Part shown: positions 31,207 to 64,000 of the stretch, piece by piece
Position numbering within the stretch: the stretch's first letter is position 1
How the letters are laid out: the number at the start of each line of letters is the position of its first letter
Assembly (NCBI GenBank): GCA_027310185.1
Contig: DAIDBH010000017.1
Location: 96,001-160,000 of the forward strand
Reading direction: 5' to 3'
DNA from: Thermoplasmatales archaeon
GTDB taxonomy: Archaea > Thermoplasmatota > Thermoplasmata > Thermoplasmatales > Thermoplasmataceae
DNA length: 64,000 bases
Program-made: the position numbers and the translations under genes
The notes under the pieces: generated by a model
Told to the model about the DNA's origin: nothing
The model's input: only the letters and a program-made list of their open reading frames with translations
Databases searched by the model: none

Positions 31207-31257
31207 TGTGATCTTCCTCTTTTTCGCTAAATAAACTCATACTTATAAACATTCCTT

Positions 31258-32265: not shown

Positions 32266-32272
32266 CTTATAT

Positions 32273-33700: not shown

Positions 33701-33738
33701 TTAATAATACTTAATAAACAGTGAAATATTAACACTGT

Positions 33739-33954: not shown

Positions 33955-34055
33955 ATGAATATTCACAAAAGATCACTGTTACTGTTAAGGATATGGAAAT
34001 TATATTTTTTTCTAAATAAGAATTAATATTCCTTTAGGATTCTGGATGGATTATT

Positions 34056-34385: not shown

Positions 34386-34386
34386 A

Positions 34387-34899: not shown

Positions 34900-35194
34900 A
34901 TTGACAAACACCACTACCGCTTTCGTAGTGAGGCTCCGCGAGAAACCCATGAGATGGAGTCTTTATGTGCTTGGACCTATTTTAACGCGTAGGTACTTTA
35001 TCTTCATGCTAGACCATCTGGCATTTAGGAATACATTTGTACATCAAGTTTCTCTGCCAGCTAACACTTCGATGTGTCTCGAGTGATAACAAAATTTCCC
35101 ATGTTTCCTGCGCTTTCCTGACGATTGGGGGTTTATATTCGCAGATGTTAAACATTGAAAAGTGATTTAAACCCTGTAAGCGATCAGTATACCA

Positions 35195-36154: not shown

Positions 36155-36733
36155 GAATCTATTTCCATCTATCCTGAAGTTGTTCTGGAGCATGCTCTGA
36201 ATTATCATAGGATAGTATTTCAACTCGTATTCGTGAATTCTTTCCTGTAATGATTCGGGTGAATCTTCTGCAAGAACAGGAACTGCATACTGAAAGATCA
36301 CTGGCCCACGATCAACTTCACTGTTCACTATGTGGATTGTGAATCCGCTATACTGCACGCCATAATCTATGGCTGCCATGTGCACTTTTATGCCATAGAA
36401 ACCCTTTCCTCCAAAGGATGGAAGAAGAGATGGGTGGATATTTACGATTCGGTCAGGAAATGCCTTCAGAAGGGAGGGTTCTATTATCTTCAGGAATCCT
36501 GCAAGAACGATCAGGTCAGGATTTTTCATCTTCAGGACCCTGGTTGTTTCTGTATCATACTTTAGGACTTCTATCCCGTTCTCCATTGCTATTCCAACTG
36601 CACCGGACTTAGCCCTGTCAGAAACAAGGCAGGATACCTCGAATGGTGAATCTTTTTTCCTTGAATGATCCAGTATTGCCCTGAATGTTGTACCTGAACC
36701 TGATGCAAAAACTGCTATGGATTTTTTTTCCAT
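36137..36733 (-). CDS. purN: phosphoribosylglycinamide formyltransferase
   Basis: ASGSGT, VLAGFL.I, NIHPSLLP.FGG, D.GP. Confidence 0.93.
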   Translation of the reverse strand: MEKKSIAVFASGSGTTFRAILDHSRKKDSPFEVSCLVSDRAKSGAVGIAMENGIEVLKYDTETTRVLKMKNPDLIVLAGFLKIIEPSLLKAFPDRIVNIHPSLLPSFGGKGFYGIKVHMAAIDYGVQYSGFTIHIVNSEVDRGPVIFQYAVPVLAEDSPESLQERIHEYELKYYPMIIQSMLQNNFRIDGNRFLLNLD

Positions 36734-39360: not shown

Positions 39361-39515
39361 TTATCAGGTACATCCTGAGAGATTTAAATATTCTTTCCCT
39401 CCAGTCTTCCAGATCAGTGATGGATTCCGATTTGTGGAAGATCACTTAATTGCACAAAGTTTTCTGTCAAAAGATGACTATAAATTATAATAACTCCGAA
39501 CAAATGCTGAATGAA

Positions 39516-39587
39516 GGGCCGGTAGATCAGGGGTAGATCGCTTGCTTCGCAAGCAAGAGGCCTCGGGTTCAAATCCCGACCGGTCCA
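39516..39587 (+). tRNA. tRNA-Ala(CGC)
   Basis: Cloverleaf: GGGCCGG/CCGGTCC acceptor with G3:U70, anticodon arm CTTGC-TTCGCAA-GCAAG, T arm TCGGG-TTCAAAT-CCCGA, discriminator A. Confidence 0.95.
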
Positions 39588-39596
39588 TTTGTCAAA

Positions 39597-39738
39597 CTAT
39601 ATCTCAATAACTTGAATACCAAACTTTTTGCATTTATTATGCAGTTTTTTTTATCAAAGGGGACTAAAGGTACATTTCTCGAATATGCATCTTAACCTAT
39701 TATCCGGTCACTGAAATTCCTGGTTCCCACCATGGATC
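39597..39738 (-). pseudogene. decayed 3' fragment of vapC (paralog of 61674-62081)
   Basis: High nucleotide identity to 61674-61820, with a poly-T frameshift and an in-frame TAA. Confidence 0.8.
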
Positions 39739-39830
39739 TCTGTTAGCTGGTTTCTTGTCTTATGAGTGAAGTTCACACCCATGCAGGAATGAATTCCTCA
39801 CCGATTGCCGTTCATTCAATCTTCCGATCC

Positions 39831-41270
39831 CTATGTTTTCTTGTAAATCTCGCGTTCTATGTCTGAAAGATCCATAAGAATCACATCACTAATTGGCTCT
39901 TGCAGTGTCCATTTGAATCCGCTCTTAGAAAACACAGCATAGCTATATTTCTTTCCGGGGTACTGCTTTCTCAGTGTTTCCGACTTTGTCCTTAAGGCTT
40001 CAACTATACTTATGGGAACTGGGCTGTTTGTCCACTTGCATTCAGCGAAAAGCAATTCTCCTCGTGTTTCGGAATATGCAACGATATCTATCTCCTCAAC
40101 GTCCCTGCCCTTTTTGTTGGACTCATTCCTGCCCCACCATCTGGAAACCGTATCAAATGATCTGCCCAGTATCCCTTCCAATATGAGCTCCTTCATGAGG
40201 TTCTCAAACTGCTCACCCGCAAAAGTGGGGAAATCATCCACTATGATCTTAAGAATCTCTTCATTGCGAGAATTCTCAATCTCGCTCTTGTGTGGCAGTA
40301 CATACCTGAACCAGAACTTCAGATACGGGTCGGATATCCAGTTTAATCTTCTCTTAAATTTCTCAGAAGCTCCAAAAGGTTTCTCCGGAATAACTAAGCC
40401 CAGTGACATGAGCACGTCCAGATATTTTGATACCATGCTCTTGTCCAGACCGGAATAGGCGCATATCTCCCCCAATGTATGATTTCCGTATGAAATGGAT
40501 CTGAGAATCAGCATGTAATTCCTAGGTTCCCTAAATTCAGTTCTGAGAAGAAAATCTGCCTCCTCGTAGAGGGGCGCTCCTTTTGAAATGATGCTTTTTG
40601 AAACGTTTTCCCAGAATCCCGTATCAGGATCAAGTTTCAGGAGGTAATCTGGTATGCCGCCAAATACAAAGTATGTATTACATAAATCTTCGAACCCATA
40701 ATTCACGAATTCTGACAAGTATCTGAACTTCAGTGGTCGTAACTGCAATTGGCCTGTTCTTCTGCCGTAAAGAGGGCTCCTGTAAGAAAGCACCTCATTT
40801 TCCATCATGCTGATAGAAGAGCCTGAAAGAATCAGCATTACGTTCTTCTCCCTCAGTACGGTGTCATATACCTTCTGGAATACCGACGGTATTGCCCTGT
40901 TAGCCTCTATGAGATATGGGAATTCATCTATGACAATTATGATCTTTGATTCACGTGCTTTTGCTTGAAATGAACTGCTCGAAGTCAGAACAGTGAAAAG
41001 AGAGTGCCAGTCGTCGAAATTAGCCATAAGGATGCTTTCATCACCCAGGAACTTTGACATAATGGCTTTGAAGCTGTTTATGTTCTCCCTGTCTCCCTCT
41101 GCAGTTGCAAGAAAATAAACACCCCTGGTGCCTAGGAACTTGCTGATCAATTCGGTCTTCCCAACCCTTCTCCTGCCATAAAGGATGAATAGTGAGGGCC
41201 CTTTCGCAGACATGGCCCTTTCCAGGATTTTCATTTCTTCGATCCTGTCAACAAACTTTTGTTGAGACAT
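39831..41270 (-). CDS. archaeal AAA ATPase with C-terminal DUF234 (PD-(D/E)XK-like) domain
   Basis: FVDR.EE, YGRRRVGKT, IDEFPYL, SGSS.SMM, WW...EEIDIVA...FAECKW. Confidence 0.85.
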   Translation of the reverse strand: MSQQKFVDRIEEMKILERAMSAKGPSLFILYGRRRVGKTELISKFLGTRGVYFLATAEGDRENINSFKAIMSKFLGDESILMANFDDWHSLFTVLTSSSSFQAKARESKIIIVIDEFPYLIEANRAIPSVFQKVYDTVLREKNVMLILSGSSISMMENEVLSYRSPLYGRRTGQLQLRPLKFRYLSEFVNYGFEDLCNTYFVFGGIPDYLLKLDPDTGFWENVSKSIISKGAPLYEEADFLLRTEFREPRNYMLILRSISYGNHTLGEICAYSGLDKSMVSKYLDVLMSLGLVIPEKPFGASEKFKRRLNWISDPYLKFWFRYVLPHKSEIENSRNEEILKIIVDDFPTFAGEQFENLMKELILEGILGRSFDTVSRWWGRNESNKKGRDVEEIDIVAYSETRGELLFAECKWTNSPVPISIVEALRTKSETLRKQYPGKKYSYAVFSKSGFKWTLQEPISDVILMDLSDIEREIYKKT

Positions 41271-41343: not shown

Positions 41344-41382
41344 ATATACCATTATAATATTAAGCAGATCTCGACCTTTCCT
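41344..41382 (+). repeat. degenerate copy of the 39-bp cassette site
   Basis: ATATACCATTATAATATTAAGCAGATCTCGACCTTTCCT aligns without gaps, 26/39 to consensus. Confidence 0.55.
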
Positions 41383-41405
41383 TCAAGTTTTAATTCCTTG
41401 AATTT

Positions 41406-41451
41406 TTGATAGAGTAGAGTTCTGGCATTGCCCAGAACTCTACTCTATCAA
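41406..41451. repeat. perfect 20-bp inverted repeat with 6-nt loop
   Basis: TTGATAGAGTAGAGTTCTGG-CATTGC-CCAGAACTCTACTCTATCAA. Confidence 0.9.
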
Positions 41452-41540
41452 TTACGGAGATGCAGAAGCGGTCAAATGCACCTCAGTGACATATTACCAA
41501 AAATTATGGAGATAGGGTTAAAAAATATGTGTGATTTTTC

Positions 41541-42095
41541 TTATTTTTCGCCAGAATTAATCTCCGCCAGCTTGGACCAATTCCTGTATTTTTTTTCTAT
41601 GTAGTAATCAAGACTATATTTGCTTGTTCCAAAGGCGCCGTTTATCAGTATGAGCAGAAGAAATACAAGCACATAAATTATGCTTGTGCCTATATCGGTC
41701 GCACCGTATATGTAAAAACCGCCGAAACCCTCTGGTACGGACCACATAAAGAAGCTGAAGATTGCCCCAAGGAAATAGACTATTTTCCTCAATAAACCAA
41801 ATAGTATTGCTAACGCAAGCAGAGTCTCAAGTAAAGCAATAAGCAATGCAAACAGGTACGGATCATAGGACGTTACATTGATCCAAAACTGAAACCACGG
41901 CATCATCCAGGACGGCTGCTGAATCATTGAGCTCTGAATCATGGATTCGAACCCACTGAAGAATGCGGGTTGCCATTTGAGCCATGCATCGGCGAGCCAT
42001 ACCACCCCAAACAGAACGCGCATAATCACTTTATATCCGGCCATATTCCTTACAAACCAGTTTCCATTTGCCATAGCATTCATTGTTTGATTCAA
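41541..42095 (-). CDS. DoxX/DoxD-like membrane protein
   Basis: R..FG..WL.DA.LKWQP, E...ALA...G, W...EGFGG; overlaps copA stop. Confidence 0.6.
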   Translation of the reverse strand: MNQTMNAMANGNWFVRNMAGYKVIMRVLFGVVWLADAWLKWQPAFFSGFESMIQSSMIQQPSWMMPWFQFWINVTSYDPYLFALLIALLETLLALAILFGLLRKIVYFLGAIFSFFMWSVPEGFGGFYIYGATDIGTSIIYVLVFLLLILINGAFGTSKYSLDYYIEKKYRNWSKLAEINSGEK

Positions 42096-44167
42096 GTTAC
42101 CACCACTCCTTTTTCATATTTCTGGATAAGCTTTGATACGTTGCGTCTCAACAGAAGTGAATTAAGAACCACGGATGTGGAACTCATCCCCATGGCAAGT
42201 GCTGAAAGTATGGGCAGAAATGAATAGATCGACAGGCCAAACAGTGGGACAAGTAACCCTCCGGCTACAGGGATTAATGCAGTGTTGTAACCAAACGCCC
42301 ATCCAATGTTCTGCTTGACCTTCCCTATGGTTTTTTTGCCTATGATCTTGGCATATACCACATCATTGAGATCGTTTTTGAGGAGTATAATGTCTCCACT
42401 CTCCCTTGCGATATCGGTGCCCGAACCCATGGCAATTCCGACATCGGCTGTTTCCAGAGCCACAGTATCGTTGATTCCATCTCCAGTGAAAATTACATGA
42501 TCCCCTGCTGCCTGATATTTCTTTATTATTTCTGATTTGTCTGCAGGAAGCACCTCGGCGTGAATATCATCGATTCCAAGCTGATTTCCCACTCTTCTTG
42601 CTTCTTCCATGGAGTCCCCGGTTATCATTGAAGACCTAATTCCCATGGATCTGAGGCCTTTTATGGCAGAAACGGCTTCCTTCCTGATGACGTAGGAAAG
42701 TGAAATGAACCCCCTTTCCTCGTTATCAACATTCACTGATACGGTCGATCCCCCTTCCTTCTTTGCTCTTGAGACCCTGATTTCCTTATCATTTACCCTG
42801 CCTGTAATCCCTACGCCGGGAATCTCCTTAATTTCCGTCGCTTCGAATAGAGGAATCTTCTTGTTCTCGGCCAACGCAACTATGGCTCTTGCGATTGGAT
42901 GGTTTGAGGCTGATTCAACAGAAGCTGCTAGTGCAATGACGTTTTCCTCAGAGTCGGCAGGAGAGACAGAAATTCCTGTAACCACAGGATCCGGCTCGGT
43001 AAGTGTTCCGGTCTTGTCAAAAACGGCCCGTGTTGATTTTGACAATCTATCCAGCGCACTTACATTCTTCACTATTATGCCGTTCTCAGAAGATACGTTG
43101 GACGAGATGAGTAGAGTAATTGGTCCAGCAAGGCCAATGGCACAGGGGCAGGCGACAACCACGACAGAAACAAAAGCAAGGATGCCTATTTCAAGCGCCA
43201 GCGGATATCCTACGCTTGAAAGATAGAAGTACCAGAAAAGCGAAGCCACAAGAGCGGATGAAATAACGATGGGAACGAATACCGAGGAGAAAACATCGGC
43301 AATTCTCTGAACTTTGACCCGGCCGGAACTCGCTCTCTGTATGAGTTCGTATATCTGACTCACCGTGCTGTCTTTTCCAGTCCTGGTTACGTTTATTCGA
43401 ATAACACCGTTAAGGTTCTTAGTGCCTGATGCCACAACCTGACCGGCGGACTTCAGAACAGGCTCCTGCTCTCCAGTGAGCATGGATTCGTCCACCTCGC
43501 TCTTGCCTTCATATATTATTCCGTCGACCGAGATCACCTCGCCAGGCTTTACTAATATTTTATCGCCCGGTCTTATCTCATCGGTCTTCTTGTCAGTGAT
43601 ATCACCAAGGCTGGCGATGTAGTGGACAACGTTAGGTATCATTCCAATTAGCTTGCTGGCTGCTCTGTTTGCCTTCACCTTTGTGAGGTTTTCAATGAAA
43701 TTACCTGTTAAAATAAGAGTCACGATGAAAGACGATGCATCAAAATACACCTCGGAAGGTGGAATTGAGCTTGGTCGAGCGATTGTTACATAGGCGGAGA
43801 ACACGAATGCAGTAAGAGTTCCCAAGGAAACTAGCAAATCCATGTTTGCCGATCTGCTCTTTAATGCATGATATGAACCCTCATAGAATCCGTAGCCGGA
43901 ATAGAATTGGACAGGCAACGTCAGGATGAGGAGAAGATAATTCAGGTAAAAAATGGAATGTGAAAAACCATATGTGATAACTATAACTGGTATAGAAAGT
44001 GACCACCCAACAATCAGTCTGCGCTTGAGCTTCCTGGCTTCGGTCTCAGGAGATGAGTACTTCTGCTGGCAGGTTTTTGAACAAAAATAGTATGTTTGCC
44101 CGTCGACTACCGACTTCAGGTCAGTATCCTCCGGTACAAACATTCCACACACTGGATCAGTTGGCAT
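42092..44167 (-). CDS. copA: copper-translocating P1B-type ATPase with N-terminal TRASH/YHS domain
   Basis: DPVCGM..YYFCS..C, TGE, CPC, DKTGT, HP, GDGIND, YN, MxxSS. Confidence 0.93.
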   Translation of the reverse strand: MPTDPVCGMFVPEDTDLKSVVDGQTYYFCSKTCQQKYSSPETEARKLKRRLIVGWSLSIPVIVITYGFSHSIFYLNYLLLILTLPVQFYSGYGFYEGSYHALKSRSANMDLLVSLGTLTAFVFSAYVTIARPSSIPPSEVYFDASSFIVTLILTGNFIENLTKVKANRAASKLIGMIPNVVHYIASLGDITDKKTDEIRPGDKILVKPGEVISVDGIIYEGKSEVDESMLTGEQEPVLKSAGQVVASGTKNLNGVIRINVTRTGKDSTVSQIYELIQRASSGRVKVQRIADVFSSVFVPIVISSALVASLFWYFYLSSVGYPLALEIGILAFVSVVVVACPCAIGLAGPITLLISSNVSSENGIIVKNVSALDRLSKSTRAVFDKTGTLTEPDPVVTGISVSPADSEENVIALAASVESASNHPIARAIVALAENKKIPLFEATEIKEIPGVGITGRVNDKEIRVSRAKKEGGSTVSVNVDNEERGFISLSYVIRKEAVSAIKGLRSMGIRSSMITGDSMEEARRVGNQLGIDDIHAEVLPADKSEIIKKYQAAGDHVIFTGDGINDTVALETADVGIAMGSGTDIARESGDIILLKNDLNDVVYAKIIGKKTIGKVKQNIGWAFGYNTALIPVAGGLLVPLFGLSIYSFLPILSALAMGMSSTSVVLNSLLLRRNVSKLIQKYEKGVVVT

Positions 44168-44178
44168 GTTTATTCTCC

Positions 44179-44319
44179 TTACCTGCTATATTTCAGGGGA
44201 TTCTTGTCGAATTCTTCCTTGCAGTGGCTGCTGCAGAAGTAGAACGTTTTTCCCTGAAACTCACTCTTCAGGTCAGTGTTCTCTTTCACTTTCATTCCGC
44301 ATATCACATCTGTTGCCAT
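44179..44319 (-). CDS. TRASH/YHS-domain metallochaperone (CopM-like)
   Basis: MATDVICGMKV...FYFCSSHCKEEFDKNP.KY, directly upstream of copA. Confidence 0.85.
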   Translation of the reverse strand: MATDVICGMKVKENTDLKSEFQGKTFYFCSSHCKEEFDKNPLKYSR

Positions 44320-44394
44320 AGTTATGAATTGTGATGCGATACATATATTATTACCATTCATAATGTTAAAGTAGTTGAGTAAAATCATTACATT

Positions 44395-44934
44395 ATGAGA
44401 AGAAACATTTCTGAATTGGAACAGAGACTCATATTATTACTCAAGAGAAATTCCAGGATGAGTATAGTTGACATAGCAAGGGAACTGGGTACAAGCAGGC
44501 TTACAGCCAAGAAGGCTCTGGACTCCATAGTATCAAGCGGAAGGATCAAAAAATTCACAATCTCTCTTGCCGATGAAGAAATAGATATGGTTCTTGTATA
44601 CACCGACAATTTAGAGAATATACCAGAAAATATTATCCTGGAACGCTTCTGTTTGATAGATGGATCCTATATGATAATCCTGTACTATGAGGACCTTATA
44701 AAGATAAAGAAGGCAAACATAAAAAGAGTTGAAATAGCAACCTCCAGGGAGGTGAATGAAAACATGACCAGGGCGGAAGGCATCCACTGCGATTACTGCA
44801 GAAAGGAGATCAAGGACAATCCGATCTCATTAGAAATAAGGGGAAAGACATATTATGTGTGCTGTCCGAACTGTGAGAGAGACCTTAAGAAAAGAGGAGA
44901 GGTAATTCTCGAGGAAAATTCCGGACATCAGTAG
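44395..44934 (+). CDS. Lrp/AsnC-HTH + TRASH copper-responsive regulator (CopR/CopT-like)
   Basis: N-terminal L..NSR.S..DIA.ELG HTH; C-terminal CDYC...YY.CCPNC; divergent from copM-copA. Confidence 0.85.
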   Translation: MRRNISELEQRLILLLKRNSRMSIVDIARELGTSRLTAKKALDSIVSSGRIKKFTISLADEEIDMVLVYTDNLENIPENIILERFCLIDGSYMIILYYEDLIKIKKANIKRVEIATSREVNENMTRAEGIHCDYCRKEIKDNPISLEIRGKTYYVCCPNCERDLKKRGEVILEENSGHQ

Positions 44935-45065
44935 AAACAAATACAGATGAAAAGGGGCATGAGGTATTTCCACTCAAACTGTTCTCATAATGTTTAGTAC
45001 ATTGTAGTGTTCTGGACAGTTTGGGCAGTTATATTATAAATAACTGAGAAGAATTATAATTAATT

Positions 45066-45479
45066 ATGAATGGGAAAAGAGATTCCCCTACCGGGAGGGG
45101 TTCGCTGTTTGACAGGTCTGAAAATGACCAGACGGGCAGAAATTCCAACATTTCAGAATTAATATCTGTTGGGAAGGGGAATGTTGAATTGGGAAATGGG
45201 GTGGTAAAGATTGCAGAAGGAAAATATCTCGTCTTGGAGTTGAGCGAAGAAAAGGGCCCTTGCCCCGATAATATGTGCCAATTGAAAGCTGAAATTAATA
45301 TAAGAATTCTTGGCAGCATCAATGATCCATCCTCATATGAAATAATCAGAACAGATAAATTCACGTTGGCCATAAGCAAAGCTGTATGGCATGCTATAGA
45401 TAAAGGCAGGCAGGGTATTTCCATCAGGAAAGGAAGATTTGGTAATCTCAGCGTAAAGGGATTCTCACTAACCTACTGA
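45066..45479 (+). CDS. hypothetical protein
   Basis: ORF co-oriented with downstream cluster, CxxxxC motif. Confidence 0.5.
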   Translation: MNGKRDSPTGRGSLFDRSENDQTGRNSNISELISVGKGNVELGNGVVKIAEGKYLVLELSEEKGPCPDNMCQLKAEINIRILGSINDPSSYEIIRTDKFTLAISKAVWHAIDKGRQGISIRKGRFGNLSVKGFSLTY

Positions 45480-45603
45480 CAACTCTCTGCTCTTTTGTAC
45501 CCCACATAGAAGACGAATGGTCTCACTCTATAAGGTAACTTATCATTGTGTATGCATATACTTACCAAAATTTACAGATTGAATAAGGCATTGTTTTATA
45601 CAT

Positions 45604-45813
45604 TTGCATAATTTCGTAAATATGTCTTGTGGATGTATGAAGAATGCAGGAAATGATATGGGAAAGCAACACATGCACAGCCACGGTGGTGAGGAAAACC
45701 TCCCAGCAGACGATACTAAATCTGCACTGGGCATACTGAATGAGAGGTATGCAAGAGGAGAAATCGCAAAGGAAGAGTATTTAAGCATGAAGAATGAAAT
45801 TTTGTCAAGGTGA
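45604..45813 (+). CDS. SHOCT-domain protein with His-rich N-terminus
   Basis: ALGILNERYARGEIAKEEY SHOCT motif; HMHSH. Confidence 0.75.
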   Translation: MHNFVNMSCGCMKNAGNDMGKQHMHSHGGEENLPADDTKSALGILNERYARGEIAKEEYLSMKNEILSR

Positions 45814-45817
45814 AATA

Positions 45818-46216
45818 ATGGCAACTGAATACAGAGTCAAATCAAAGCATTCCTTCGATGAGGTGTGTGACAAGATAAGAGAGATCGTACCACCAAATGG
45901 TTTCTCAATACTATCTGAGATCAGGACAAGCGACATCTTGAGGTCAAAGGGATTTGAATATCCTAATCTCAGAACGTTTGATATTTGCAATGCCGGTTAC
46001 GCCAACAGGGCACTTTCTCTTGACACACGGGTTGAAACAATTATTCCATGCCATTTGATAGTAAAGGAAGCAGAGAATCATACGGAAGTATCTGTTCAGC
46101 TGCCCAGAGAAATGTTTGACTCCCTCCACACGGAGGAATCTGAGGAAATGGAGAGTTTCATGAGCGAAGTTGAAGCAAAACTTAAGGGTATTGTGGATTC
46201 ATTCGCTGATGAGTGA
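45818..46216 (+). CDS. DUF302 family protein
   Basis: GFSILSEI, ICNAGYA, IPCHL; paralog of 11185-11571. Confidence 0.8.
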   Translation: MATEYRVKSKHSFDEVCDKIREIVPPNGFSILSEIRTSDILRSKGFEYPNLRTFDICNAGYANRALSLDTRVETIIPCHLIVKEAENHTEVSVQLPREMFDSLHTEESEEMESFMSEVEAKLKGIVDSFADE

Positions 46217-47034
46217 AGAGTGTATTACTTGACTTTACAAAGTTTATTGAGGTGTCCGGCGTGAATGATAACGATTGGATAAGCACAGTTTTATCTTCGC
46301 CCTTCATGAAAATAATGGCGGACAGTCTCAACAGGTCTAGCAATGAGATGGATCCAAGGGCAACACCGCTATACAAGGCAGTGATCGGACATGTCGGCCC
46401 TGAACGCACAGTTATCGACATAGGCGCAGGCGTCGGTAGATTTGCCATCCCTCTTGCACAGGATGGAATAAAGGTAACCGCAGTTGAACCCAGTGATGAG
46501 ATGCGCAGACATCTGAAGGAGGCTATAGCAAGCAGTGGTCTATCGTCCGGAATAAATGTAGTCCCGTCTTCGTGGCCTGTAGATAAGGCCCTGACCGCGG
46601 AGGTAGTCTTCGCATCATTTGTCATTCAGTTCTCCAAAAATCCTATGGAATTTATCCATGCCATGGAAAGGTCTGCAAGGAATCAATGTATACTGTCTGT
46701 TCATGTGGACCAGCCACTTGAGTTTTTAAGAAATATCTGGCAAGTTTTCCGTCCTACAGAACCCGTGCCTGTGATGCTCACTTTTTCTGATCTTTATCCA
46801 ATGCTCCTGAACATGGGCATCATAGCCAATGTTGCGATTATAGAGGAAAAGCGTATGTCCAGGCCAGTGATGGAACCTGCCAAGATCATTACACTGCTTT
46901 CCGACCTCCTGAGTATCAGGGATAAGCCTGCAGACATGCAACGACTGAAGGAAATCCTGGAGGGCATGAGAAGCCGGATTCAAGAGCCACCTTCCATGAG
47001 AACTGCCATTGTCTCATGGCAGCCCAGGAGATGA
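46213..47034 (+). CDS. class I SAM-dependent methyltransferase
   Basis: VIDIGAGVGRFA, AVEPS..M. Confidence 0.85.
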   Translation: MKSVLLDFTKFIEVSGVNDNDWISTVLSSPFMKIMADSLNRSSNEMDPRATPLYKAVIGHVGPERTVIDIGAGVGRFAIPLAQDGIKVTAVEPSDEMRRHLKEAIASSGLSSGINVVPSSWPVDKALTAEVVFASFVIQFSKNPMEFIHAMERSARNQCILSVHVDQPLEFLRNIWQVFRPTEPVPVMLTFSDLYPMLLNMGIIANVAIIEEKRMSRPVMEPAKIITLLSDLLSIRDKPADMQRLKEILEGMRSRIQEPPSMRTAIVSWQPRR

Positions 47035-47768
47035 GAATTATGGAACGAATAGATACGGGAAAGGCGAAATCGGACAGGGGTTTTGCATCCGTAACCACCA
47101 TTGTTTCTGTCATCATTATTGCAGTCCTAGTCTTCGCCGCAATATCAGCGGCTGCGTTTGTAATGTACGGTTCTGGAATTGGCGGCTTTGGCTCCGGGGG
47201 GCCTGGAGGCGGTGCCAATTCTATCTTCATAGTGAACAATACATCATTCAATAGGATGAATTCAGTTCCAGCAGGTGTTGCCGTCAACAACAGCAGCAAT
47301 ACCATAAACGTGACTTCGAAGAGCGTAACCCTCATCGTTGAGGCTGCACCCACATGGTACCCCGGGCAGGGGGATTTCTGGTTAATTTATGGACTGGCCA
47401 ATCCAAATATAGTGATCAGGGAGGGCACCACGGTTCATTTTGTGTTCATAAACATGGACAACATTACTCACATGCCTGCTATCACCACCAACAGTCCGCC
47501 ATATAGCTACATGCCTATGCAGGGCAACATGATGGGATCTGGTACGGATTCAGGCTCCGGAATGATGGGATACCAAGGCGGTGGTAACGGTAGCTGGCTT
47601 GCAATAGGTCCCATGCTACCTGGAACTTCGGCGAATGCCAATGATCAGGCATACGCTGCCTCAAACCTAACGGTGACATTCAGTTCCAGTGGGAACTACT
47701 ACTACATATGCCTCATTCCGGGGCATGCACAGATGGGTATGTACGGAGAGATTTCCGTTCAAGGATAA
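47031..47768 (+). CDS. membrane-anchored rusticyanin/sulfocyanin-like blue copper protein
   Basis: N-terminal transmembrane helix; type-1 Cu ligands H...YYYICLIPGHAQMGM; Met/Gly-rich insert. Confidence 0.85.
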   Translation: MRIMERIDTGKAKSDRGFASVTTIVSVIIIAVLVFAAISAAAFVMYGSGIGGFGSGGPGGGANSIFIVNNTSFNRMNSVPAGVAVNNSSNTINVTSKSVTLIVEAAPTWYPGQGDFWLIYGLANPNIVIREGTTVHFVFINMDNITHMPAITTNSPPYSYMPMQGNMMGSGTDSGSGMMGYQGGGNGSWLAIGPMLPGTSANANDQAYAASNLTVTFSSSGNYYYICLIPGHAQMGMYGEISVQG

Positions 47769-47782
47769 GGAGAAGAGAGATT

Positions 47783-48361
47783 ATGTCACAGCAACAGGAT
47801 AGACACTTCAGACCGGGAATAATGCTTTTTCCCATCAGAAAATACATGTCAAGACCCCAACACGATTTTATAAATACCAACGTGAAACGTGGTATGACCG
47901 CGCTCGATCTTGGAAGCGGCCCCGGATTCTTCACGACCATGCTATCGGAAGCGGTAGGAATAAACGGCACTGTTCATGCGGTGGATGGTGATAAAGCCGC
48001 TGTGACGCGACTCCAGAACAGGGCTGGTGCACTTGGCATGGTGAACATCAAGGCATACGCTTCTTCTGCAGCCAGTATTCCATACATACAAAGCAAATCA
48101 ATAGATGTTCTCTTTTCAAACGGCCTCCTCTGCTGCATGCTTGACCACAGGGGGGCAGTGGATGAGATGATGCGCGTTATGAAAACAGGCTCAAGAGGTT
48201 TCATCAGCGTAGCCAAGTTGTTCAGGAAAGATGGCCTTGGCGTTCCAAAGGATGAGTGGAAGGAAATCACGAGATCATTTGATGTGGTAGATTCAGGATC
48301 ATCAGTCGTGATGGATTGGGTAGTTGTTTCTAAGCCCGGAGATGATAAAAATGAATTATGA
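47783..48361 (+). CDS. class I SAM-dependent methyltransferase
   Basis: ALDLGSGPGFFT, E..RV.K.G. Confidence 0.85.
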   Translation: MSQQQDRHFRPGIMLFPIRKYMSRPQHDFINTNVKRGMTALDLGSGPGFFTTMLSEAVGINGTVHAVDGDKAAVTRLQNRAGALGMVNIKAYASSAASIPYIQSKSIDVLFSNGLLCCMLDHRGAVDEMMRVMKTGSRGFISVAKLFRKDGLGVPKDEWKEITRSFDVVDSGSSVVMDWVVVSKPGDDKNEL

Positions 48362-48830
48362 CGCAACGAGAAGAAACCGCATGGGCACCACGTCAAGATT
48401 AGGTGTGAACCTGATACTGCTGGAATTCTTTTTGCTGATTATTCAGTTCGTAATCGGAATGTGGATGAATCTTTTTGCCGTATTCCCATCCTTTGGTCAA
48501 TCTTTTTTCATGTATGGAATGATGCAGGTAATGTTTTCCGTACCGGAACTCATGGTTCACATGATGCTAGGAATTTTTATCGGACTGGTGTCCTTGATGA
48601 TTTTCTTTGTATTTGCAATGGCGGGTGACTACAGGCTTTCAGCGTTAAGCGCCGTGGCATCCATATCCATACTCACCGCCGGCATCGGAGGCCTTGAATT
48701 CTTGTTCTCCGGATTTACGAACAACATATTCTCTTTCCTCATGTCCTTAGGGTTCATTTTTACCATTGTCGCCTATGCCTCTATATTATACATGATTTCC
48801 AGCAGTGATCGACGAACCGGAACTCCATAA
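48351..48830 (+). CDS. hypothetical multi-pass membrane protein
   Basis: QF..GM..NLF, H...G; about 4 transmembrane helices. Confidence 0.65.
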   Translation: MNYDATRRNRMGTTSRLGVNLILLEFFLLIIQFVIGMWMNLFAVFPSFGQSFFMYGMMQVMFSVPELMVHMMLGIFIGLVSLMIFFVFAMAGDYRLSALSAVASISILTAGIGGLEFLFSGFTNNIFSFLMSLGFIFTIVAYASILYMISSSDRRTGTP

Positions 48831-48832
48831 AC

Positions 48833-49906
48833 ATGCAAAATTTTTTTAAAAGACTTCTGGCATTATTTCTTGTTGCGGCGTCAAGTTTTGTTCTTTCATA
48901 TATATATTCAGAAGACCTTTACCTGAAGCTCGGTTCCGGTACGTTGGGCATCTTTTACGCAGAATTTTCTATAGGTACTATACCATTAATATTTTACCTG
49001 TTCATTTGGTGGAGAAAACACAAATACCAAGAGGAGGACAAGTTCATTCATTTTTTAAGAATTTCATTCGGCTACTTGTGGATTCTTGACGCACTCCTGC
49101 AGATGCAACCCGGGATGAACGAATACTTCGCTGCAATGATAATTGCCCCTAACATCAGCGCAGGGGGAATAACCGGCTATGTTTCAACCTTTGCCCTTTC
49201 TTTGTGGAATATGCATCCTGTTGTGTTTGATGTTGCATCTTCCCTGATCCAGTTATATATAGGTGGAGTTCTTTTAACACAAAATAGAGGAAAGATATAC
49301 TCTTTAACACAAATGATAGCCATATTATGGGGATTTTCCATCTGGATTTTTGGAGAAGGATTCGGAGGCACTTTCGGTTCGGGAGCTACCATTCTTACCG
49401 GGTTTCCGGGCTCTGTATTAATCTATGTCTACGCATCTCTAATACTCCTTCTATCATCGAAAAATCGCGGAGGAATGATACGTAAATCATCTTATTTTTT
49501 CGGAGGCCTGATATTCATACCATCATTAATTGTACAACTTATGCCGTCTAATGGCTATTTGGGGAACATGTCAGTGATATTTATGCCGATGCCGTCTCCA
49601 TCGGGAATACTGAATTTTGCAAATGAATTTCAGTATTATTTCACCCAATCGCCAGTATGGCCAGACATTGTGACTCTTTTTCTTATTCTGGCATCTGCCG
49701 CTGGATGGATACTTGGAAAGTCCTATGGCTATGTTTTTTCTGGCATTCTTGCATCCTTTTCGTGGATAGTTTTCCAGGGTCTTGGTATACTGGGAATCTT
49801 GAGTACAGACCCAAATACCGGCCTGCCCATGTTAATAATAAGCATCTTCTTCTATCTCTGGACTAAAGAATATTTCACGTCAAGCAATGGGTTGACAAAT
49901 GATTAA
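48833..49906 (+). CDS. multi-pass membrane protein with DoxX-like domain
   Basis: LRI.FG.LW.LDALLQ.QP, W.FGEGFGG, TDPNTG; shares motifs with 41541-42095. Confidence 0.65.
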   Translation: MQNFFKRLLALFLVAASSFVLSYIYSEDLYLKLGSGTLGIFYAEFSIGTIPLIFYLFIWWRKHKYQEEDKFIHFLRISFGYLWILDALLQMQPGMNEYFAAMIIAPNISAGGITGYVSTFALSLWNMHPVVFDVASSLIQLYIGGVLLTQNRGKIYSLTQMIAILWGFSIWIFGEGFGGTFGSGATILTGFPGSVLIYVYASLILLLSSKNRGGMIRKSSYFFGGLIFIPSLIVQLMPSNGYLGNMSVIFMPMPSPSGILNFANEFQYYFTQSPVWPDIVTLFLILASAAGWILGKSYGYVFSGILASFSWIVFQGLGILGILSTDPNTGLPMLIISIFFYLWTKEYFTSSNGLTND

Positions 49907-49939
49907 ATAAATTGCTGTAATATATATGCAAGAGGTAAA

Positions 49940-50791
49940 ATGAGCAGTAACCAGGGTAACACGCCATATAGGGATCTCCTTACGGCTTCAATATACTGGA
50001 TAATACTTGGTATATTCCTGTATTCATATTTCCAGACGAGAAATCCCCTATCGCTGTCCGTTGCGACGGACAGGGTGGTTGACGCTTTATCCATTTCATT
50101 CATTTTCCTAGTGAACAGAATAGCGCGAAAACCTGGTGATGAATATCACTCCTATGGTTTCCACAGAGTTGAAGTTATACTGAATGCAACAGTCATCCTC
50201 CTTTTCGTGGCTATGGCTATTTACTCAGCATTAATGACCACTCAGCTTCTTCTGACAAACGCAATCAGATCACCGGCCTCTACGGTTGTATCCTCAATTG
50301 TTGCCGTTCCATTGCTTTTGCTGGCGGCGTTTACCATGCAGAGAGATAAGAAATCAAACTTCAGGGTTATGTTCATACACACCCTCCAGGACCTTGAAAT
50401 AATATTAGTCACACTGGTGTTCTCTCTTGCTTCAGAATATTTTATCGGGCCATCGTTGAGTTATATTGGAAGCTATGCAGTTATCCTGATCATACTGTAT
50501 GGAAACAGGAATATGTTCAGAAGAAATTTCAACATGCTCATGGAAGGTTCGCAGGTAAGTGTAAGGGAAGTTGAGGACAGGATCAAGAAAGAGTTTCCGA
50601 ATGCGCACCACCTTCACATATGGGACATCTGCCAACACCAGAGAGTTGCTACTTTACATCTTAGTGTTCTTCCATGCACGAAGATCGGTGAACTTGATAA
50701 AACTAATGCTGCTATTAAGAGTCTGCTTTCAACGTATGGGGTTAATCATGTCACGATCCAGTTTGAATCAGCAGACCCCACAAAATCTTGA
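49940..50791 (+). CDS. cation diffusion facilitator (CzcD-like) transporter
   Basis: SYG.HR.E, N.R..F.H...D, LMEG, HHLHIW, H.TIQFE. Confidence 0.88.
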   Translation: MSSNQGNTPYRDLLTASIYWIILGIFLYSYFQTRNPLSLSVATDRVVDALSISFIFLVNRIARKPGDEYHSYGFHRVEVILNATVILLFVAMAIYSALMTTQLLLTNAIRSPASTVVSSIVAVPLLLLAAFTMQRDKKSNFRVMFIHTLQDLEIILVTLVFSLASEYFIGPSLSYIGSYAVILIILYGNRNMFRRNFNMLMEGSQVSVREVEDRIKKEFPNAHHLHIWDICQHQRVATLHLSVLPCTKIGELDKTNAAIKSLLSTYGVNHVTIQFESADPTKS

Positions 50792-50976
50792 ATACTGCCA
50801 TTCGATTGAGCCACCTCTGGCTGGGGCAGTTAATAGCTTCTGATGGGAGTGAATGCAATTATTCCTACTGCAACGGTAAGTATGATCCTCGTCAGGTAGT
50901 CTACATATTTTAGATGTATTTTTTCCCAGGGCTTTGGAGGGCCCACTTGAAGAGACATAGTTCATCAGGATTCAGA

Positions 50977-51015
50977 GTATTCCCTTAAGACATTAATCAA
51001 ATCCCGACCGGTCCA
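50977..51015 (+). repeat. 39-bp cassette/att site
   Basis: GTATTCCCTTAAGACATTAATCAAATCCCGACCGGTCCA (36/39 to consensus; last 19 bp identical to tRNA 39569-39587). Confidence 0.95.
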
Positions 51016-51162
51016 TTTTGTCTAAATATATTAGTGGATCTTTACATTTATTTTAATATGGTCAAAACATATTAACAGGATTGTAGAGAAAATGACTCTC
51101 TGCTTCTTCTAGCGAGTTTAAGTGAGAAGAAGTTATTATAAATGTTTAGGATATGGACATGT

Positions 51163-52195: not shown

Positions 52196-52234
52196 GTATT
52201 CGCTTAAAACTTTAATCGAATCCCAACCGGACCA
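52196..52234 (+). repeat. 39-bp cassette/att site
   Basis: GTATTCGCTTAAAACTTTAATCGAATCCCAACCGGACCA (36/39). Confidence 0.93.
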
Positions 52235-52540
52235 TAGGTATTCGAATCTTTGGAGAACTTTTTCGTTTAAAATTTACGATCTTTCTATCAGGAAAGATCT
52301 GACCTTTATAAATGAGATGAATTGCGAAAAAACAAAAACATATGTTAGTCTTAAAGACGACGTATCCATAGACAGAGAGAAAGTCCTATTGGAGATTGTA
52401 CAAAGCCACCTGAATACTTGAAGGGGGAGCTGTTGATAAATCAGCAATATCTGATACTTCGGGAATTGGAGATTTGTATTCGTACTGTCTTGTAAATTTG
52501 ATCTAAAAACCTTGAATACTTCTTATTGATTATCTTCTAT

Positions 52541-53570: not shown

Positions 53571-53609
53571 GTATTCGCTTAAGACTTTAATCAAATCCCG
53601 ACCGGTCCA
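53571..53609 (+). repeat. 39-bp cassette/att site
   Basis: GTATTCGCTTAAGACTTTAATCAAATCCCGACCGGTCCA (38/39). Confidence 0.95.
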
Positions 53610-53919
53610 TTCGAGCAGGTTATCTCTGCATATTCTTTTCGCCCAACATCGTTTAAAATGGCTTTAATCTAATTTTCCTCCACCATACGTCACTTCAAAA
53701 CTGCTTCAGAAGATTGTAAAACACAACAGCATTGTTATTCCACACATTTTCGATGAGTACATTGAGGCAACAACATTTTGGGACGCAATTATTCTTTTCA
53801 GTTTTTCCATTGATTTATTGTTATTCAGTTCATCATGTCAACGCAGGTTGATTATTTTCCAAAGACGCCAGAATAAAATTTGTTGGAACCGCCTGCCAAC
53901 TATTTCTATTTCCTTTCAT

Positions 53920-55932: not shown

Positions 55933-55971
55933 GTAATCCCTTAAAGCATTAATCAGATCCCGACCGGTCCA
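55933..55971 (+). repeat. 39-bp cassette/att site
   Basis: GTAATCCCTTAAAGCATTAATCAGATCCCGACCGGTCCA (34/39). Confidence 0.93.
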
Positions 55972-55985
55972 TTCACCATTAAATT

Positions 55986-57696: not shown

Positions 57697-57735
57697 GTAT
57701 TCCCTTAAAACTTTAATAAAATCCCGACCGGTCCA
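57697..57735 (+). repeat. 39-bp cassette/att site
   Basis: GTATTCCCTTAAAACTTTAATAAAATCCCGACCGGTCCA (37/39). Confidence 0.95.
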
Positions 57736-57743
57736 TTCTAACT

Positions 57744-60338: not shown

Positions 60339-60377
60339 GTACTCACTTAAAACTTTAATCAAAACCCGACCGGTCTA
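60339..60377 (+). repeat. 39-bp cassette/att site
   Basis: GTACTCACTTAAAACTTTAATCAAAACCCGACCGGTCTA (35/39). Confidence 0.92.
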
Positions 60378-61134
60378 CTCTATGAACTTTGCCTGTATTT
60401 GGTTTGTTTTAAATTTCTGGTTTTCCTAGTTTTACTCCTTGATTCCAACCAAAGAACATCATCACAGTATTCCCGTTCTCGTCTAATCGAATCGTTTTCA
60501 AGCTCAAAAATATCAACTGATCTTCTTGAGAATAATTACAACTCTGCTATTACGATTCCTTTTTCCTTGTCTGAAACCAGGTTTAAAACCTTTAACTTTT
60601 CAGGCATGTTTCTATTTGCCCTTATAATTGTCTTCACATAATCACCTTTTCCAATGGCAGTTTATCGCTTAGAGGGAACGTAATGAATCCACGCAACACC
60701 TTTCGAGAGAAACGTTTCGTATAGTTTCTAAACAAGGTTGTTCTTTGAAATGAAGAACTCTGTGATCTTCTCTTCAAGTTCATTTTTTGGTTCTATATTA
60801 ACATCCTTGACTAAACATTACAAACTACGTCAGAGTTACTCAAGAAAGTCCATCACATTTTTCGCATTTCATATGATATTCCTGATACATACTGTCACAT
60901 ATGATGATTGTGTTTTACCGATATATATTCATTAAAATGAATAGAAATGTGCAAATCTCTATACAAATAGAAAATAATGACTTTTCATGCCTAGGAACTT
61001 GCTTTGGATTTCTCTGAGTTCACAAGGACAAAATTATGATTATTTGATGATTTTATCCCCCTTTCCTTAGAAACAAGTTGAAAAAGCAGAGCCTATAAGA
61101 CAAACCTTTATACTATTATTAACTATAGACATCT

Positions 61135-61356
61135 ATGACCACGTCAACTATTCAGGTCAAAGAGGAAACCAAGAAGACCCTGCAATCCATGAAACTTCAT
61201 CCCAGGGAAACCTATGAAGATGTAATTGAGAGGATGATTGAGGACCTAAGCGAATTAAATGAAGAGACCATAAAGGAAGTAGAAGAGGCCAGAAAAGAAA
61301 TAGAATCCGGTAGATTTGTTACACACGAGCAGCTGAAGAAGGATCTTGACCTTTAA
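61135..61356 (+). CDS. antitoxin partner of RelE
   Basis: STIQVKEETKK.L...K....ETYEDVI.R...G.FVT.E.LKK.L. Confidence 0.8.
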   Translation: MTTSTIQVKEETKKTLQSMKLHPRETYEDVIERMIEDLSELNEETIKEVEEARKEIESGRFVTHEQLKKDLDL

Positions 61357-61610
61357 TGGACTATATAATAATCTGGTCTGTTCAGGCTTCTAAGCAATTG
61401 AAAAGCCTTGACCGGTCAATTGCCAAGAGAATTTATGAAAAAGTTGGACAGTTGCGTCAAAACCCGGAAAGATATGTTGAGAAACTTGTTCGATATCCAT
61501 ACTACAGGCTTAGGATTGGGGATTACAGGGTGATTCTTGACATTCAAAAAGAGATGGTTAGAATAATGATTTTGAAAGTCGGACATAGAAGTAGTATATA
61601 TGACAGGTAA
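61356..61610 (+). CDS. relE: RelE family toxin
   Basis: A.KQLK.LD, YRLRIGDYRVI, VGHRSSIY. Confidence 0.9.
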   Translation: MDYIIIWSVQASKQLKSLDRSIAKRIYEKVGQLRQNPERYVEKLVRYPYYRLRIGDYRVILDIQKEMVRIMILKVGHRSSIYDR

Positions 61611-61624: not shown

Positions 61625-61662
61625 GTGTTCGCTCAAAACTTTGACAAATGCCGACCGATCCG
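61625..61662 (+). repeat. cassette/att site (diverged, 1-nt gap)
   Basis: GTGTTCGCTCAAAACTTTGA-CAAATGCCGACCGATCCG (32/39). Confidence 0.85.
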
Positions 61663-61673
61663 TTTTCATCAAG

Positions 61674-62081
61674 CTATATCTCAATAACTTGAATGTCAAG
61701 CTTTTTGCATTTATTATACAGTGTTTTGTCAAATGTGACTAAAGGTACTTTTCTCGAATGTGCATCATAAGCTATTATCCAGTCATTGAGATCTCTGAAA
61801 CTTAGCTTGTTTTCGACCATGAATGCGGATGCCTTCTCCATTATCTTTCCAGATAGCCATGAAACTGTGAAATATTCACTATGCAATAATTCGTCAATCT
61901 TAATTCTAACACTTTCATTATCTATTCCGTATCGGGGAAGCACAAAACCAAGTTCAACAATTGACAGTGAGTTCACTATGGGGTCTTCTGACCTATCGAT
62001 AAACTCTCTTGCACTTTCATGGTGTGGAGAATTCTCTATGGTATCATACACCAGAACATTTGTATCGACAAGCACCGTCAT
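61674..62081 (-). CDS. vapC: VapC PIN toxin
   Basis: VLVDTNVLVY, S..H, VEL, ND..I, LVTFD. Confidence 0.88.
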   Translation of the reverse strand: MTVLVDTNVLVYDTIENSPHHESAREFIDRSEDPIVNSLSIVELGFVLPRYGIDNESVRIKIDELLHSEYFTVSWLSGKIMEKASAFMVENKLSFRDLNDWIIAYDAHSRKVPLVTFDKTLYNKCKKLDIQVIEI

Positions 62082-62314
62082 TTGCTCATCTCTTCCCATC
62101 CCGCCCTTATCTCACTATCAGCATCCATGGATGAAAGCTTTTCTATTGCCCTGAAGGTTATTCGCCCTCTGCGTTTCCTTGTAGAGTTTACACTATTCCG
62201 GAGACGTTGGTTAATGATCTTTGACATATTCTTTGTGCTACCATACTTTTCTATAGATTCTCTGACGATTTCAGCGTAGATTTCTTCATCCAGGTTGATA
62301 GTGGTTTTTATCAT
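62078..62314 (-). CDS. VapB-type antitoxin
   Basis: KTTINLDEE.Y..IV.ES...YG.....SK.IN..LR; ATGA overlap with vapC. Confidence 0.75.
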   Translation of the reverse strand: MIKTTINLDEEIYAEIVRESIEKYGSTKNMSKIINQRLRNSVNSTRKRRGRITFRAIEKLSSMDADSEIRAGWEEMSK

Positions 62315-62700
62315 GAATGTGAATGGTAATACCATATAAACATTTAACGGTAAACTGTCAGTCTTTTAATTAATACGGTTCGCTTATCAAATGCACTATC
62401 TTTTTCGTCTGGAAATAATATTTCAAGAATTCGTGTGACATCCTATTCCAGCTTTCGCAGGGAGCTTCCCACTTCAAAGGTTGCTGGTGGAATCTCCATG
62501 AATTTGGAACCCCCTGTGTCCGAAGGCACTCTATCTTTCATGCTAAGCCATCTGACTTTACAGAAGCATGCACGATTGAAACAATATGCTGTCCGACCTT
62601 TTTCACTTCTGTTTGCGAACACACATCGCAATTTCCCTAAAAAGATAATAGTTTTCGCTACATTTCATCCCCATCTTGCAAAGGTGGAATTCCCGATCGC

Positions 62701-62736
62701 GTATGCTAAAACTTTAATCCAATCCCAACTGGTCCA
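62701..62736 (+). repeat. cassette/att site (diverged left arm)
   Basis: GTATGCTAAAACTTTAATCCAATCCCAACTGGTCCA. Confidence 0.85.
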
Positions 62737-62858
62737 TAAATACCTGTATTAAGAATTATTCTATCATATTTCATTAATAATCTTAATCCAACTTACTTTA
62801 TTGAACGCTTTATCGTGATTAAGAATTACTGGTGAATTGAATAACCATGTTCATCACT

Positions 62859-63480: not shown

Positions 63481-64000
63481 TTAAAGAGGTAACTTTTTCC
63501 AGTCCATCAGGTCCTTATTATTCAGAGACCTGATTTCAAGTTTTTCAAGTAGATCCAGAAATAGGTCGTCCCTTATCTCCTTCCCGTAAACCTTGTCCAT
63601 AGAATGATGAAACAATGCTGATTTCAAAGCGCTTGTTGTAATGGCCGACTGAAGGCTTGTTGCATTGTCTGCATCACTCCTTATCTGTTTGGAGAAGTCT
63701 TTAGATATATCTTCCTTCTGCAGATCTTTCAGAAAATCGTCAACTATGTTTTCCAACTTCCTACTATTTTCTTCTGCCAGAACAACTCTGACCTTATATG
63801 TTGGTTCAAATTCTATCTTATCATCATTGACTTTAAACCATTTCAACGCATCTTTTTCAAAGAACACTTCTGAAATGATCTTCGCAACGTTCTTGGGATT
63901 TGAGAAGTCAACACCGCTTGTCAGATCGTATGTGACCAGCGATCCATCCTCTGATACTTTCCTCGAATTTTCAATACTTGACTTGATACTATCTTCCGTA
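63481..64000 (-). CDS. hypothetical protein, 5' end beyond window
   Basis: Frame stays open to the edge (...TEDSIKSSIENSRKVSEDGSLVTYDLTSGVDFSNPKNVAKIISEVFFEKD...). Confidence 0.7.
   Translation of the reverse strand, partial: TEDSIKSSIENSRKVSEDGSLVTYDLTSGVDFSNPKNVAKIISEVFFEKDALKWFKVNDDKIEFEPTYKVRVVLAEENSRKLENIVDDFLKDLQKEDISKDFSKQIRSDADNATSLQSAITTSALKSALFHHSMDKVYGKEIRDDLFLDLLEKLEIRSLNNKDLMDWKKLPL

Follow-up and report, generated by a model that had tools for sequence, protein, structure and literature searches.

The 3' end of a vapC toxin gene occurs twice in the DNA analysed here, a 64,000-nt stretch of a Thermoplasmatales genome (the window), and each of the two ends is probably the left junction of a mobile vapBC cassette of ~0.8 kb that is present in two copies within an array anchored at a tRNA-Ala gene. 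The anchor is a tRNA-Ala(CGC) gene on the plus strand at 39516..39587 (ARAGORN; Rfam tRNA, 68.6 bits), and the core search identified the last 18 nt of this gene (39570-39587) as the recombination core. Sites composed of an arm and a copy of this core divide 23 kb into cassettes that carry toxin-antitoxin, defence and metal-resistance genes. Directly observed are the sites, the register and length of the unit, its unrelated neighbours and the conserved flanks on the outside.

Immediately behind the tRNA gene, a 9-nt spacer (TTTGTCAAA, 39588..39596, plus strand) leads from the core to the vapC stop; this is the canonical vapBC register, the gap being the same in 16 of 29 foreign loci. The remnant (39597..39722, minus strand), defined by repeat search, alignment and translation, corresponds to approximately the last 41 codons of vapC. 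Its stop codon (CTA, 39597-39599) lies 9 nt past the tRNA end, and its similarity to vapC fades past ~39722. The intact vapC, in the same orientation at 61674..62099 (minus strand), encodes a 141-aa PIN-domain protein (Pfam PIN, 7.5e-16). Its stop codon (61674-61676) lies 11 nt past the core copy at 61645-61662, the two extra nucleotides relative to the canonical spacing of 9 nt being due to an insertion. An earlier note on this DNA had described a decayed near-copy of the vapC 3' end after the tRNA gene, with stop codons 9 nt from the tRNA end and 11 nt from an internal site. Both offsets were confirmed on the sequence, and the near-copy is ~85% identical (39588-39722 against the gene at 61674-62099), with two repeat pairs connecting the copies, 39592-39650 with 61669-61727 (90%, 59 nt) and 39649-39722 with 61724-61797 (84%, 74 nt). 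The poly-T frameshift and stop codon ascribed to the tRNA-proximal copy were likewise found: the alignment against the intact gene places a 2-nt insertion within the T run, and the translated remnant has three internal stops relative to the intact VapC C-terminus, which ends in ...KTLYNKCKKLDIQVIEI before its stop.

The intact gene has an upstream partner, an 85-aa open reading frame at 62078..62335 (minus strand, from the ORF list) that overlaps the toxin start by 22 nt. This partner has no family match in Pfam or NCBIfam and is kept alongside vapC in all cassettes compared; its gene position suggests the role of a VapB antitoxin. The layout of a type II VapBC system, a PIN toxin with a small overlapping partner gene upstream, is found at 61674-62335.

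An 18-22-nt copy of the tRNA-Ala 3' end marks the point at which the likeness begins in both copies, and the sequences remain colinear from CAAAT(C/G)CCGACCG(G/A)TCC via the spacer into vapC. Of the 30 bases that precede each core, only 4 are shared between the copies, a chance-level agreement; the upstream sequence is the tRNA body on one side and the repeat-family arm GTGTTCGCTCAAAACTTTGA on the other. The pairwise alignment therefore places the beginning of homology at the core, and neither tRNA-specific nor relE-side sequence is included. An ordinary segmental duplication within the genome, in which the vapC end was copied together with adjacent sequence, could be suspected from the two same-orientation copies in one genome, but it is hardly credible because homology does not run upstream of the core. 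It is further disfavoured by the recurrence of the same junction in other genomes and by sequence identities. In a gapped alignment over 136 nt the remnant is 84.6% identical to the intact copy of its own genome, and it is 83-87% identical to foreign vapC copies; the intact copy is 94-95% identical to the foreign copies over the same stretch. Since the remnant is no closer to its own intact counterpart than to foreign copies, a comparison that faster decay of the pseudogene could blur, the identities would fit two separate acquisitions. The earlier note had proposed that a related cassette was placed twice, once at the tRNA gene and once at an internal site. The two placements are in agreement with these data, but the internal position of the intact copy does not show insertion at an internal site: insertion at the tRNA gene followed by outward pushing by later arrivals would fit equally well.

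Searching the window for the core CAAATCCCGACCGGTCCA with up to three mismatches gave nine matches, against 0.01 expected from shuffled sequences. The internal cores, all in direct orientation, are at 50998, 52217, 53592, 55954, 57718, 60360, 61645 and 62719. Seven of these eight are preceded by the arm CTTAAAACTTTAAT with at most two mismatches, and the eighth arm, at 61631, has three mismatches as judged by eye. The arm consensus is ~21 nt long (GTATTCnCTTAAAACwTTAAT), and the repeats reach ~40-45 nt according to the repeat search and an nhmmer site model. The resulting sites, all on the plus strand, are S1 (50977..51018, arm and perfect core), S2 (52196..52237, three core mismatches), S3 (53571..53612, perfect core), S4 (55933..55974, one core mismatch), S5 (57697..57738, one core mismatch), S6 (60339..60380, two core mismatches), S7 (61625..61665, diverged arm GTGTTCGCTCAAAACTTTGA and core with three mismatches, ahead of the intact vapBC) and S8, the last one (62698..62739, three core mismatches, partial arm). 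Site S7 was found by core search and nhmmer, and the other seven by core/repeat search, arm search and nhmmer. The number of core mismatches tends upward with distance from the tRNA gene (0, 3, 0, 1, 1, 2, 3 and 3).

Two additional plus-strand sites are more decayed. A degenerate site after the ATPase gene (41353..41378) has an E-value of 0.11 with the nhmmer site model and ~17 of 22 matching bases by eye. A possible vestigial core with a 6-nt insertion lies just ahead of the ATPase stop (39789..39816); it was assigned with low confidence from local alignment to ATPase cassettes of two other loci (L104 and L105), which runs beyond the ATPase stop through their core, and it was not detected by the nhmmer site model. 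A perfect 8-nt palindrome, GACCGGTC, is present at 39578-39585 and in every core copy, and could plausibly form the centre of the region in which a tyrosine recombinase binds or the strands cross over. The sites form no stable hairpin: six folds of four sites, on both strands for two of them, gave minimum free energies of 0 to -2.6 kcal/mol and z-scores of -0.10 to +1.88. The Rfam scan of 36000-64000 returned the tRNA only.

The array has the setting known for tRNA-targeted elements, with direct repeats of the tRNA 3' end bounding the inserted DNA, an intact tRNA gene, and insertion between flanks that are conserved in relatives. Two genomes of the same genus (G011 and G012) match window positions 39300-39590 at 83%, the match ending at the tRNA end + 3 nt. 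The distal flank (63494-63986) is 79% identical to G012:C1:1764329-1764821 and G011:C3:109023-109515. It belongs to a minus-strand gene (63481..64000, 176 aa, running off the window) whose ortholog lies just beyond the last site in two same-genus genomes; the distance from the last site is 758-825 nt in this genome (G000) and G012. Between these flanks the arrays measure ~23 kb here, ~52 kb in G012 and ~20 kb in G011. A DDE_Tnp_1 transposase gene is located ~8 kb past the distal array end (L009 8933-10369; G000:C1:166933-168369).

A second array in the same genome lies behind tRNA-Ala(TGC) on the minus strand of contig C3 (~21976-36586; locus L008 4977-19585), with cores at 36530 (tRNA), 25341, 23379, 22760 and 21996 and a further weak site at 11389-11353. 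Its first 11 kb comprise a type III restriction-modification system, a large helicase and a ParE-like gene, followed by MarR, RelE/DUF7557 and MazF cassettes. The gene located 5' of this tRNA was considered as an integrase and shows no integrase likeness. No arm+core pairings were found in the genome beyond these two arrays. Across the 61 genomes searched, this one counted, arm+core is present in 28, including 23 of 36 within its own family.

The observed arrangement could arise as follows. Each cassette would carry one site at its distal end, in which an arm of ~21 nt precedes 18-22 nt copied from the tRNA 3' end; the copy would span from the T-loop to the discriminator base and include the palindrome GACCGGTC. 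Through recombination within the core, the cassette would become linked to the tRNA gene or any preceding site, the tRNA would be restored, and arm and core would end up behind the cassette, whose first bases would as a consequence keep one register after the core. Successive events would stack cassettes between the tRNA and the conserved distal flank. Next to the tRNA gene, the original order would have been tRNA, vapBC cassette, site, ATPase cassette and site, and a deletion of ~600 nt that began within vapC and ended close to the following core would have fused the ~135 nt of vapC to the ATPase cassette. What remains beside the tRNA gene is probably the leading edge of a cassette whose middle was deleted later, and this cassette may have come in as part of a larger composite segment. 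The most decayed sites (~39789 and 41353) are those nearest to the tRNA gene, which would not be predicted by a simple rule that the newest cassette lies next to the tRNA, so that either entry of a composite segment or insertion at an internal site has to be assumed. If the first 11.4 kb entered as one composite piece, as they may have done, this would explain why the register at the tRNA is clean while the sites just inside are worn.

These first 11.4 kb appear to comprise several units with decayed internal sites, because their sub-blocks recur separately and the CDF gene follows a site in another genome (G109), on the same contig as a vapBC cassette. Besides the vapC remnant, the segment includes a gene for a 479-aa ATPase_2/DUF234 protein with an HTH domain (39831..41270, minus strand; Pfam). 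Its homologues in three loci (L102, L104 and L105) follow a core after 13 nt, counted to the stop codon, and form a cassette of their own there. A paralogue with 77% identity (G000:C3:7482-8945) is located outside the C3 array, ~2.4 kb beyond its weak site at 11353. Behind the ATPase gene there is a metal-resistance mosaic (41379..50976; Pfam) with genes for DoxX, a P-type ATPase, a YHS protein, a TRASH regulator, DUF302, methyltransferases, a cupredoxin and a CDF transporter, the blocks of which are found separately in other genomes. Matches in other genera cover 41513-44320 (93-95%), 45895-49890 (83-87%), 48191-50986 (96%) and 49930-51002 (75%). The first of these, with DoxX, P-type ATPase and YHS, is matched in four genomes of three other genera (G119, G063, G078 and G065), and in G078 it shares one contig with a vapBC cassette.

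Among the contents of the intervals between sites are PIN toxins with partners, ParE/RelE toxins with DUF7557/VapB-like partners, an AAA_14/DUF4143 ATPase, and MarR with an SRPBCC protein. Such a pair closes the cassette ahead of S7 (61135..61610, plus strand; Pfam), a DUF7557/VapB-like antitoxin (61135-61356) and a RelE/ParE toxin (61356-61610) that scores below the NCBIfam cut-off for RelE_StbE. Cassette genes occur on both strands and include whole two-gene toxin-antitoxin operons.

VapC homologues were found in 35 of the 103 genomes of the family. A core with up to four mismatches ends exactly 9 nt before the vapC stop in 16 of the 29 foreign loci read, and thus vapC abuts such a site in other genomes as well. 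As for the other 13 loci, one has just 13 nt of upstream sequence available, in six the core, inspected by eye, is degenerate or partly deleted (L024, L027, L032, L034, L035 and L048), and the six without a core are more distant homologues with at most 73% identity. In two of the 16 loci with the 9-nt register (L038 and L039) the cassette is directly behind real tRNA-Ala genes, TGC and CGC, and the others of these 16 are behind an internal arm+core; in L031 it follows a partial tRNA-Ala copy. Real tRNA genes were also considered for L064 and L031 and rejected, as ARAGORN predicts none and both have partial tRNA-Ala copies of ~40-45 nt. The idea that the tRNA 3' end and the repeats are equivalent junctions is borne out by the occurrence of the vapBC register both behind tRNA-Ala genes (L038 and L039) and at internal sites.

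From site end to site end, the vapBC unit measures 776-807 nt in 11 loci, typically ~802 nt. It is 1074 nt long in this genome because of ~270 extra nucleotides (62435..62697) that are absent from the ~802-nt cassettes of other genomes, homology to which ends at 62354-62434. The extra stretch includes a 105-aa open reading frame without a family match, and metagenome contigs diverge at ~62500 into continuations that are related yet different. In comparisons of loci, all 66 pairs of cassette bodies are homologous, against 2 of 45 pairs for the 400 nt upstream and 3 of 66 for the 400 nt downstream; two loci are identical (L042 and L043), so the independent loci are one fewer than counted. The shared bodies, the mostly unrelated flanks and the constant unit length agree with the earlier suggestion that modules move as units.

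This constancy also bears on the origin of the array. It could be the wreckage of independent integrase-bearing elements that entered at tRNA-Ala, with integrase-less cassettes that are immobile on their own. Tandem tRNA integration with partial tRNAs and integrase fragments is described in the available text for Prochlorococcus islands (bioRxiv 10.1101/2020.12.28.424599), tandem integration is said to occur in archaea in the accessible parts of PMC8371274 and PMC6563490, and degraded integrase fragments adjoin sites in relatives of the present genome. We nevertheless regard such an origin as rather improbable. The ~802-nt integrase-less vapBC unit, with both boundaries intact, occurs in at least 10 genomes from several genera, where its contexts are unrelated, and this requires either movement of the unit or an unlikely repetition of identical decay, and the ATPase cassette has its own fixed register in three genomes.

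Metagenomes contain other arrangements at the same sites. Between 69 and 93% of the words sampled from 54001-64000 are present in 16 runs from six other studies, all of them carrying the label mine drainage, mine tailings or metagenome. Contigs of four runs from four studies were compared on 44001-64000 at 90% likeness. Nine of the 15 listed joints have at least one end at a site boundary, and seven have both ends there; many joint sides measure 21-29 nt, and such joints often reflect other organisms or repeats. The joint from 51018 to 61669 is found in all four runs with sides of 21-22 nt and reads core, TTTG and TCAAGC..., i.e. the canonical 9-nt register. The joint from 52222 to 57725 has a side of 53 nt and that from 53613 to 61669 a side of 41 nt. 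At 50976, 51017, 53571 and 57697 there are loose ends that continue in diverse ways. These joints represent other arrangements in relatives at the same sites rather than excision in this strain. In one run (X5), contig depth over the vapBC bins is 2.4-4 times that of neighbouring bins, where depth is not copy number.

No PF00589 genes were found on contigs C1 and C3, and no integrase was found among the genes tested in 39.6-64 kb, in the C3 array and in the 14 kb beyond the window. A tyrosine integrase located inside the element next to the att site is thus absent from the arrays of this genome and is observed in relatives only, intact in L134 and degraded or truncated in L063, L064 and L074. 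One integrase clade adjoins the sites in these relatives (L063, L064, L066/L134 and L074); in the four loci read, the gene reads towards the core and its stop is 1 nt past the core. Just one of five integrase-site adjacencies has an intact gene, that of L066/L134, which encodes a 430-aa protein with PF00589 and a C-terminal zinc ribbon. The L063 integrase is degraded, that of L074 is a fragment, and L064 has a 296-aa form beside a 45-nt partial tRNA-Ala, not a whole gene. The fifth adjacency, known from coordinates only, is a fragment (G027:C1:1014240-1014422) ~11 nt apart from a site at 1014433-1014463.

The 430-aa integrase scores below every NCBIfam cut-off, with 46.5 bits against the 265-bit cut-off of the integron-integrase model TIGR02249. 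Among 53 metagenome loci with relatives of this protein (46-49% identical), 10 start within ~80 nt of tRNA-Arg, tRNA-Ser or tRNA-Asp, which suggests that the wider clade targets tRNA genes; a single weak site match (L142) is present in these loci. Close intact homologues in three genomes (G027, G113 and G068) have no site within ~5 kb. The best relatives within the present genome (C12:3702-4835 and C6:46298-47530) were considered as well; they are 41% identical, and the surrounding ~9-10 kb contain no tRNA or site. An N-terminal integrase fragment with 54% identity (C14 79171-79653) adjoins tRNA-Val(CAC) and thus probably represents the remains of an element with a different tRNA target. Based on these comparisons, the 430-aa zinc-ribbon tyrosine integrase is a candidate recombinase that would act in trans. 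The cassettes in this genome may be frozen, because the genome is 99.5% complete and its own integrase relatives are just 41% identical and off-site. A search of viral contigs for arm+core gave no matches.

The absence of an integrase in or beside either array of this genome is also what ordinary homologous recombination would predict, with the ~40-nt arm+core providing short homology once DNA has been taken up or passed between cells. Length and similarity of the sites would suffice for this role, and module exchange by homologous recombination between tandem integrated elements is mentioned in the accessible part of a review of archaeal recombinases (PMC8371274). Several observations make homology-driven exchange unlikely in our opinion: the 21-nt non-tRNA arm is conserved across unrelated cassettes and genera and the integrase clade is found at the sites in a fixed register in five places, both as expected of a site of the attP type, and the vapBC register is base-exact in 16 loci. 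The arm, the integrase and the register would nevertheless also be compatible with homologous recombination, and the data as a whole do not distinguish the two modes of exchange at the 40-nt sites.

As to its kind, the array belongs with known structures, being a tandem tRNA integration with integron-like and tycheposon-like traits. According to the available text on tycheposon islands of Prochlorococcus (bioRxiv 10.1101/2020.12.28.424599), these share with the present array insertion at the 3' part of a tRNA gene, outward pushing, scattered partial tRNAs and integrase fragments between conserved flanks, and adaptive cargo for defence and for nutrient or metal handling. In contrast to the islands described there, most units here are 0.8-2.6 kb long and lack integrase and replication genes, and the array has a conserved non-tRNA arm by the core, an archaeal host and a zinc-ribbon candidate integrase. 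The integrase with primase, helicase or polymerase that characterizes tycheposons was not found in cassettes S1-S8 or in 39.6-51 kb.

With integrons and CALINs, including the archaeal integrons as described in the accessible text of Ghaly et al. (bioRxiv 10.1101/2022.02.06.479319), the array shares small cassettes that each end in one site, one fixed entry point, and the occurrence of the same cassette in many arrays and different neighbourhoods; without a neighbouring integrase it resembles a CALIN as presented there. The differences are that the sites do not fold into attC-type hairpins, that the entry point is a tRNA gene and there is no IntI-type integrase by an attI site, and that the cassettes are not promoterless co-oriented single genes but occupy both strands and contain whole operons, so that no common promoter is implied.

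Other similar systems are bacterial, namely cis-mobilizable elements and the accretion of integrative elements (PMC5704250) and the ssrA islands of Dehalococcoides (PMC3146451); the available text describes att-flanked units there that lack a recombinase of their own. As presented in the same parts of these sources, such units are thought to be moved by the integrase of a related element and accumulate in tandem at one target gene. Those elements are described there as bacterial, mostly larger, and tied to conjugative elements or to a serine recombinase, whereas here very small archaeal cassettes share a 40-nt site. The accessible text of PMC5155288 and PMC12302457 reports that Cuniculiplasma and other archaea of acid mines have islands near tRNA genes that serve defence (restriction-modification, vapBC) or metal resistance. 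Those islands were predicted by composition tools, and serial att sites, cassette units and register are unmentioned in the available portions; 'tRNA-Ala' and 'tandem' are absent from that of PMC12302457, and 'direct repeat' is absent from that of PMC5155288. In the openly accessible literature searched, there is no description of such arrays in Thermoplasmatales.

A broader, tentative reading, to which we give somewhat less than an even chance, is that acidophilic Thermoplasmatales share a family-wide capture system convergent with integrons. It would use entry at tRNA-Ala, sites of ~40 nt, a zinc-ribbon integrase acting in trans from a unit in the same register, and cassettes of 0.8-2.6 kb without an integrase, and would trade toxin-antitoxin, defence and metal-resistance modules within and between genera of acid-mine communities. 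If the cassettes are moved in trans, it can be speculated that defence, toxin-antitoxin and metal modules are shared in an integron-like manner without plasmids or viruses in each cell. If true, this would account for the build-up of 'defence' and 'metal' islands in Cuniculiplasma and its relatives. The 40-nt site and the 430-aa candidate integrase could also become a genetic tool for organisms that have few.

Finally, two loci are unusual in their assigned taxonomy. The cassettes of L025 (G017:C57) and L026 (G013:C23), from different assigned genera, are 98% identical and the next 400 nt are 99.75% identical, reflecting either a very recent intergenus transfer of a multi-cassette segment or a binning artefact. 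Locus L100 (1-168) has a 56-residue match to the VapC C-terminus with 82% identity at the start of a 2.9-kb contig from a Paracaedibacteraceae-labelled MAG, which is either a mis-binned archaeal contig or a case of interdomain transfer.
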